A DNA stretch of 64,000 nt from Eledone cirrhosa. Lineage: Eukaryota. The stretch covers positions 50,716,001 through 50,780,000 of the forward strand of contig OZ024741.1 in NCBI GenBank assembly GCA_964016885.1, read 5' to 3'. Below the pieces are notes generated by a model that saw nothing but the letters and a program-made list of their open reading frames with translations, did no database searches and had not been told where the DNA came from. Made by a program: the position numbers and the translations under genes. This document shows positions 7,546 to 8,366 of this stretch, in pieces; the first letter of the stretch is position 1, and every line of letters begins with the position of its first letter.

Positions 7546-8366
7546 CTGAATTATGTGTGTGTACATGTGTGTATGTGAATGAAGACGTGTTTGGGTAATG
7601 GCTAGAGTGTTCGTTTCTCTAAGTAAGGTGTGAGTTCAATTCCCGGTGGCGCATTTTGTCCTTGCGCCACTATATTTTATGTTGATACAGTCCATTCACC
7701 TGGCAAAACTGAGAGAGAGAGAGAGAGGGAGAGAGAGAGAGAAAGAGAGAGAGAGAGAGAGAGAGAGAGAGAGACACGTATATACATACATATCATCTCA
7801 CTCACTAACCCTTTCTCATGGATAATCTGTAACTTCGATTTCTTTCTCCCCACCGCTCTCTCTCTCTACACACATATATGTTATGTTATGTATGTGTATG
7901 TATGTATATATGTATGTATATGTATGTATGTGTATTTATGTATATATATATATATATATTATACACACACACATATATATATATACATATATGTATATGT
8001 ATATGTATATATATATATATATATGTATATGTATATATATATATGTATATATATATATATATATATATATATATATATATATATATATATATATATATAT
8101 ATATATATATATATATATATATATATATATATATATATATATATATATATATATATTTCGTTTCTGAATTTGTTTAGCAAGATTCTTTATCTGAAAACGT
8201 GTGTTGAAACCGATATTGTTATACTTTGGGAGGGTCATGTTGCCAATAAGAAACACACGCACCAGTTGCTTTCACTTCAATTTATTATAATAAATTTATA
8301 AATTTAGGAATTTATAAATTTCTGGTTGGTTGGTTGGTTCCACAACCAGATAGTTGTTTATATATT

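Follow-up and report, generated by a model that had tools for sequence, protein, structure and literature searches.

Two ATAT sites inside the reading frame of a Penelope-like element from Eledone cirrhosa mark its ends and share a short match with the (TA)n target

Results

A partial tandem of a Penelope-like element lies in a TA tract

The window analysed here is a stretch of 64,000 nt from Eledone cirrhosa (GCA_964016885.1, OZ024741.1, 50,716,001-50,780,000, forward strand). The end under study lies within a TA tract at 8153 and belongs to a minus-strand partial tandem of a Penelope-like element (PLE), termed family A, which comprises the following features:

8006..8156, no strand: (TA)n target tract, with a perfect stretch at 8046-8155
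8153..8238, minus strand: 3' end of the family A array (pLTR end plus 60-nt tail), holding ORF codons 1-29 and stopping at site 2
8153..8156, minus strand: site 2 ATAT in the array end, common to the element and the (TA)n tract (alignment, junction scoring)
8213..8216, minus strand: site 1 ATAT in the array end, read through there (alignment)
8367..8409, minus strand: minimal type I hammerhead motif in the pLTR, found with our own descriptor; its stems fold, with a predicted cut after 8371
8611..12276, minus strand: RT-GIY-YIG ORF, full-length, broken by frameshifts and stops, with an N-rich insert; GIY-YIG at the Pfam cut-off
12172..12186, minus strand: hairpin predicted by folding, spanning codons Ser31-Ala35 and lying 5 nt downstream of site 2
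12194-12191, minus strand: site 2, Asn28-Ile29 ATAT, in the read-through copy (motif position; TA loose ends in 80 contigs)
12254-12251, minus strand: site 1, Asn8-Ile9 ATAT, in the read-through copy (motif position; TA loose ends in 148 contigs)
12277..13470, minus strand: upstream 5'-truncated unit plus pLTR of the partial tandem, whose hammerhead core carries a change

As in EN+ PLEs, reverse transcriptase (RT) and a GIY-YIG domain at the C terminus share a single ORF (broken in family A), and partial tandems giving pLTRs, inverted 5' copies and a one-sided tail are present. Pfam GIY-YIG scored 22.6 bits, at its cut-off, and RVT_1 scored 19 bits, under its cut-off of 29.6; a YVDD motif is found in the translations. 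Both A and the related family A' carry a CX4CxxC linker, two Cys between the GIY and YIG halves and a downstream His. Judged by these sequence motifs, a CX2-5CxxC linker together with CCHH, the element is of Neptune/Nematis type, an assignment that does not tell the two clades apart. These clades share with it the C-terminal GIY-YIG, linker, CCHH and partial tandems, while inverted 5' copies, a one-sided tail (generally 30-40 bp) and a microsatellite bias towards (TA)n are traits of PLEs at large (PMC8557442). The DKG motif reads DKS here, and we rejected the Hydra clade, in which CCHH is absent, the linker is CxCX5C and the motif DKT; the Penelope/Poseidon clade was likewise rejected, as it lacks the linker zinc finger present here. 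Among named proteins, one from Octopus vulgaris comes closest, with 66% identity to A'.

Copies end at two positions within the ORF

Sites 1 and 2 are ATAT motifs lying 60 nt apart in the ORF, at codons 8-9 and 28-29. The array end at 8153..8238 is identical to the ORF start at 28/28 residues by tblastn, and the copy at 8611..12276 is the only family A copy in the window that reads through site 2, going on as CGTAAG from 12190. Alignment bore out the initial annotation in this respect and in placing the ends at 8153, 23684 and 61469 directly behind the ATAT of codons 28-29, with one substitution in the 23684 copy within the 12-mer given there. It was also right about a second site, since 25118 (A) and 6107 (A') both stop after AACAATAT, at codons 8-9. 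For the A' ends at 6280 and 16308, the homologous codon and the TA phase proved to be the same, while the proposed match at a Tyr-Ile codon was not established: no A' copy reading through site 2 was found in the window or among the top A' contig rows listed, so that the A' match at this site is either 5 nt or 0 nt. The observation that copies end at two ATAT sites inside the ORF is thus partly confirmed.

The seven ends of that annotation represent five insertions, as 23684/25118 and 6107/6280 are each the two arms of one insertion. An eighth end, 14136, had been omitted; it pairs with 16308. The insertions outside the array are as follows, with family letters beyond A and A' assigned in this analysis:

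23684..25118: two-armed A insertion; tail arm 23684-23792 (minus) to site 2, body arm 23793-25118 (plus) to site 1
61469..61795, minus strand: solo family A pLTR plus tail, stopping at site 2
14136..16308: two-armed A' insertion; body arm (minus) matching by 1 nt and stopping 14 nt before site 1
16246-16308, plus strand: A' tail arm of the preceding insertion, stopping at the site-2 codon
6107..6280: small A' insertion with two arms; 6107 (minus) is its site-1 end, and a 13-nt tail arm runs to 6278-6280 (plus)
5597/6098 and 6361/7265: two-armed insertions of family B
5064/5519: two-armed insertion of family E
20777/21078: two-armed insertion of family C
39274/39971: two-armed insertion of family C', which is related to C

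Across the window, all eight two-armed insertions with both ends located combine one short and one tailed end (8/8); in the non-A families, the end sites are defined by the arm pairs themselves and the machinery is assigned by architecture only. Several arms start about 15 nt or less from site 1, but others overlap by tens to hundreds of bases, and we therefore rejected strict twin priming from a single RNA as the general mode; the overlaps suggest two RNAs, or one RNA used again.

Family B (5597-7265, 35575-35668) is a short repeat with a hammerhead-like motif (core CAGAAGA) and end sites about 90 nt apart, represented by two two-armed insertions and one solo tail with TA on both flanks. Non-coding, head-to-head palindromic insertions with a one-sided tail lie in TA tracts at 5064-5519, 20777-21078, 39274-39971 and 61869-62995, several of them with a GCT(C)...(G)AGC stem starting a few bases past the short end. 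At 57700-57900, a pair of short repeats is arranged tail to tail over 60 unique bases and a TA tract, as against the usual head-to-head order. The window also contains two broken non-LTR retrotransposons on the minus strand (88-3748 and 29932-34016), each combining an RT with a restriction-like endonuclease motif at the C terminus, as in R4/Dong-like elements.

Sequencing runs X1, X5, X6, X7 and X21 were aligned to the element. X1, which may be the window's own sample, contributed 17,964 contigs aligned to 11900-12640, and X7 only 20, with nothing usable. The loose-end tally comprised 24 listed rows (6 for X1) and 984 further rows, and the A' tally 12 listed and 402 further rows. Among the top 6 rows listed for X1, TA-bearing loose ends sat solely at 12191 (80 contigs) and 12251 (148 contigs). 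As these are exactly the two sites, the dispersed 3' ends that would speak against fixed positions were not seen in the X1 rows listed. Summed contig depth in X1, which is not copy number, fell about 70-fold over site 2, from 1.08 million (12200-12224) to 15.7 thousand (12150-12174); a step at site 2 was likewise present in a second organism, X5 (3.6 to 4312). In X21, a drop in raw reads at 12205 and read starts at 12537-12540 coincide with AATT and GCATGC, which we take to be restriction-enzyme sites of the library, and this step was not used. Most A' contigs at the position of 14136 end at AACAATAT instead (21 contigs, among the top rows listed).

Ends match the TA target more often than expected by chance

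For 10 junction types whose read-through copy is present in the window, we scored the match to (TA)n, taking the local sequence as the null. Match lengths were 4, 4, 4, 8, 3, 2, 2, 2, 2 and 1 nt. A match of at least 2 nt was found in 9/10 types (4.2 expected, P 0.002) and of at least 4 nt in 4/10 (1.06 expected, P 0.015); for the non-A types these counts were 7/7 (P 0.002) and 2/7 (P 0.15). Of random breaks, 37% would match by 2 nt and 8-11% by 4 nt. Left out of the count were A' site 1 (homologous to A site 1), 57791 (ambiguous alignment), 60069 (2-nt match, with a partner that enters a tetranucleotide repeat), 35668 (which lies on the 5' side of a solo tail), as well as simple-repeat hits and TA runs lying within repeats.

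A seven-nucleotide ATATATA at 12403-12397 showed no comparable depth step or TA loose end among the rows listed, nor was a comparable step seen there at any of the four TATA runs that lie between the ribozyme and site 1. The match alone therefore cannot pick the site, because it is usually 2-4 nt long and longer AT runs nearby go unused. Where a perfect TA tract adjoins an element end, its median length is 11.5 units (n = 18), as against 8.5 units for the others (n = 48; P 0.005).

Conservation in distant relatives differs between the two sites

If the coding sequence doubled as a primer-binding site, as had been proposed, synonymous variation should be reduced at the sites. Between A and A', 117/285 conserved RT-EN codons differ, and against this baseline codons 2-28 showed no deficit (7/20 changed, 8.4 expected, P 0.35). 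In windows chosen post hoc, codons 2-17 were changed at 2/13 (P 0.04; 8/273 RT-EN windows are equally low), codons 5-13 carried 0/7 synonymous changes (2.8 expected, P 0.02) and codons 18-28 were changed synonymously at 5/7. Only one synonymous position per site touches ATAT, and AAT makes up 45/110 Asn codons (~40%).

An alignment of 16 sequences, namely the 13 of 16 protein matches that cover this region together with A, L003 and P0091, has codons known for 3/16. At site 1, Asn is present in 7/16 relatives, and the replacements Gly, Ser, Thr and Cys lose the AT. In distant relatives, site 1 reads Gly-Leu and the match at site 2 is 2 nt long; conservation of site 1 between subfamilies holds for A and A' and does not extend to these relatives. 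The site-2 column, placed from an invariant Gln-Ala six residues downstream, holds Asn, Tyr or His in 10/16 sequences, the highest share of 40 columns (background 0.13), and the adjacent column -1 is also rich in these residues (8/16). Since Asn and Tyr are chemically unlike yet share xAY codons, this hints at selection at the RNA level. The hint is weakened by kinship among the sequences, by codons being known for 3/16 only and by the rich column -1, and selection at the protein level would also account for it. That RNA selection holds the site-2 codon at xAT (Asn or Tyr) across relatives about 30% alike, as a telomerase-like primer-alignment site beside a Ser-x-x-Gln-Ala hairpin where pairing aids microsatellite targeting, is a tentative idea that we consider rather doubtful.

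Among 28 metagenome loci, only L003 and L006 have a homologous ORF start. L006, from a family about 31% alike to A here (via P0091), ends at an Asn aligned with Asn28; this single junction enters a short AT run (about four AT units) with a 2-nt match. A search of the indexed protein set with the N-terminus returned no new relative, viral contigs held none, and genome contigs gave three weak bacterial matches. In another locus, L025 (1700-1879), a more distant PLE stops in its ORF start (about codon 46) directly in (AT)21; having an unrelated ORF start and no read-through copy, it was not counted.

Distance from the hammerhead varies between families

By our own descriptor, the hammerhead motif is present in 4/4 family A pLTR copies of sufficient length, with cleavage predicted, and it fits the min-HHR of PMC4209133. 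Rfam returned no hammerhead among the best 150 of 224 matches listed, all of which were sub-threshold and mostly microRNA models on simple repeats. The core in the upstream pLTR (12441-12437, minus strand) differs from the other three A copies, and nearly all aligned contigs bear the other letter at 12437.

In A, the ends lie 158 and 218 nt from the predicted cut, and in A' site 1 lies 215 nt from it. Two distant relatives have 112-113 nt between the cut and the position of site 2, and the distances in family B are 29 and 118 nt. A common spacing of about 170-215 nt from the ribozyme, as first suggested, thus does not hold: with distances ranging from 29 to 218 nt between families, the spacing is not conserved and the hammerhead is no ruler. 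By stability, the hairpin predicted at 12172..12186 (z -2.1) ranks in the top 10% of the unit's 36-nt windows; a similar stem is predicted in L003 (z -0.9), and no stable hairpin is predicted past site 1 in A.

Discussion

Very probably, the two ends described here represent the ends of the pLTR and of the tail of a PLE, as read from genomic ends. We propose, with a probability of roughly 0.58, that they correspond to two fixed internal start sites of reverse transcription in the ORF, where the TA target pairs with 2-4 bases to set the first nucleotide. By analogy to the anole Poseidon, the endonuclease would nick both strands of the TA tract, and each nicked 3' end would prime internally on RNA running into the next ORF start, one per site; we infer this from the reported Poseidon reactions (PMC11167929) and from the pairing of one short with one tailed end in every two-armed insertion. 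An RNA signal bound by protein, rather than ATAT or the ribozyme, probably sets the position. For site 2 this signal would probably lie downstream, because the end keeps its place relative to the Gln-Ala anchor and folding predicts a hairpin at Ser-x-x-Gln-Ala (Ser31-Ala35). Target pairing of 2-4 bp would then likely fix the register only, which may be enough, since four matching bases suffice for priming by L1 (PMC3649969).

A priming role for the coding sequence is plausible because the ends cluster sharply at two sites and the match exceeds chance across families; what does not stand from the initial annotation is the notion that the match chooses the site. We lean towards a pairing step between the nicked (TA)n target and AU-rich RNA. 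Against the proposed mechanism count the start RNA of the one tested PLE enzyme, described as 'not homologous' to the cut DNA (PMC11167929), the lack of a synonymous deficit over codons 2-28, the small number of non-A types that reach 4 nt (2/7), the A' match at site 2, which may be 0 nt, the 1-nt match of the end at 14136, the loss of the AT at site 1 in relatives without Asn there, and the lack of a stable predicted hairpin past site 1 in A.

The strongest competing explanation, a serious one although we rate it well below the mechanism above, is that RNA structure and protein alone place the starts without pairing, the matches stemming from AT-rich sequence and later trimming by slippage. 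This has been reported for the anole Poseidon (PMC11167929), and it accords with the frequency of chance matches given above (37% for 2 nt, 8-11% for 4 nt per random break), with the end at 14136, which looks trimmed when compared to most A' ends, and with the lack of an overall synonymous deficit over codons 2-28. However, a match of at least 2 nt at 9/10 junction types (P 0.002) speaks against it, trimming should blur ends whereas the TA loose ends listed sit on two single positions, and the exchange of Asn and Tyr at the site-2 column also argues against it.

Telomerase-like slippage on AUAU, in which the enzyme writes part of the (TA)n before copying onward, we regard as improbable. PLE RT is the sister of telomerase (PMC8557442) and end-associated TA tracts are indeed longer (11.5 vs 8.5 units, P 0.005), but longer tracts are also bigger targets, and the L006 end has just about four AT units. 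Slightly less probable still is that ATAT is itself a conserved primer-binding site that fixes where copies end, at a constant distance from the hammerhead. The 4-nt match at each A site and at A' site 1 and the unchanged codons 5-13 (0/7, post hoc) speak for it, but neither ATATATA at 12403-12397 nor other TATA runs come with a comparable step, the ribozyme lies anywhere from 29 to 218 nt away, site 1 reads Gly-Leu in distant relatives and their match at site 2 is 2 nt long, and hammerhead mutants left insertion in vitro unaffected (PMC11167929).

Ends inside the ORF, with the tail lying between two internal start sites, have already been published (PMC3846280, PMC11167929). In vitro, RT of the anole element Poseidon_Ac, the one PLE enzyme tested in this way, starts at two intra-ORF sites bounding the tail, needs RNA downstream of the starts and extends both strands, with a dimer predicted; its start RNA is described as 'not homologous' to the cut DNA (PMC11167929). 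The present element shares with it two intra-ORF sites, probable starts here (the main start of Poseidon_Ac lies 111-118 nt in), with the tail between them and genomic ends there, AT-rich targets and a nearby hammerhead, which is dispensable in Poseidon_Ac. They differ in that Poseidon_Ac starts at a non-homologous position in an AC-rich stem-loop and has no linker zinc finger, whereas here there is a 4-nt match to (TA)n at both sites, the tail measures 60 nt and a linker zinc finger is present.

How PLEs choose start sites and microsatellite targets has been named an open question (PMC8557442). That paper attributes the preference for (TA)n to the linker zinc finger and has the tail arise through resolution by the endonuclease, and the word microhomology is absent from its main text. 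Short complementarity between target and RNA aids priming in the endonuclease-less Athena/Coprina elements (PMC8557442) and in L1 (PMC3649969), as proposed here; those elements use telomeric repeats or a poly(A) tail, whereas the match here is 2-4 nt within coding sequence. We did not find primer-template matching at 3' ends described for EN+ PLEs in the literature covered, which includes the accessible text of 10.64898/2026.07.22.740005, PMC4209133 and PMC13282606; many subscription papers, Repbase notes and supplementary figures lay outside this scope, and the supplementary junction figures of PMC11167929 might bear on it.

The architecture is thus known, and the short target match together with the Asn/Tyr column is a modest, testable variant of it. 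Because one synonymous change removes the 4-nt match, the question of pairing can be tested directly in this family. Pairing, if true, would tie PLE enzymes closer to primer alignment of the telomerase type; if the match is incidental, the element is an ordinary case of the known tail.

The pLTR and tail of Adineta vaga Penelope elements differ from those described here, with a 31-bp tail and ordinary target-site duplications, and the microhomology reported in the text of PMC3846280 concerns 5' junctions and deletions, not 3' ends. An Asn/Thr/His-rich low-complexity insert within the family A ORF (11270-11560, minus strand) recalls the N-rich inserts of Adineta Penelope elements (PMC3846280). 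Words of family A occur in sequencing runs of 16 organisms, in shares from 0.72 down to 0.06.
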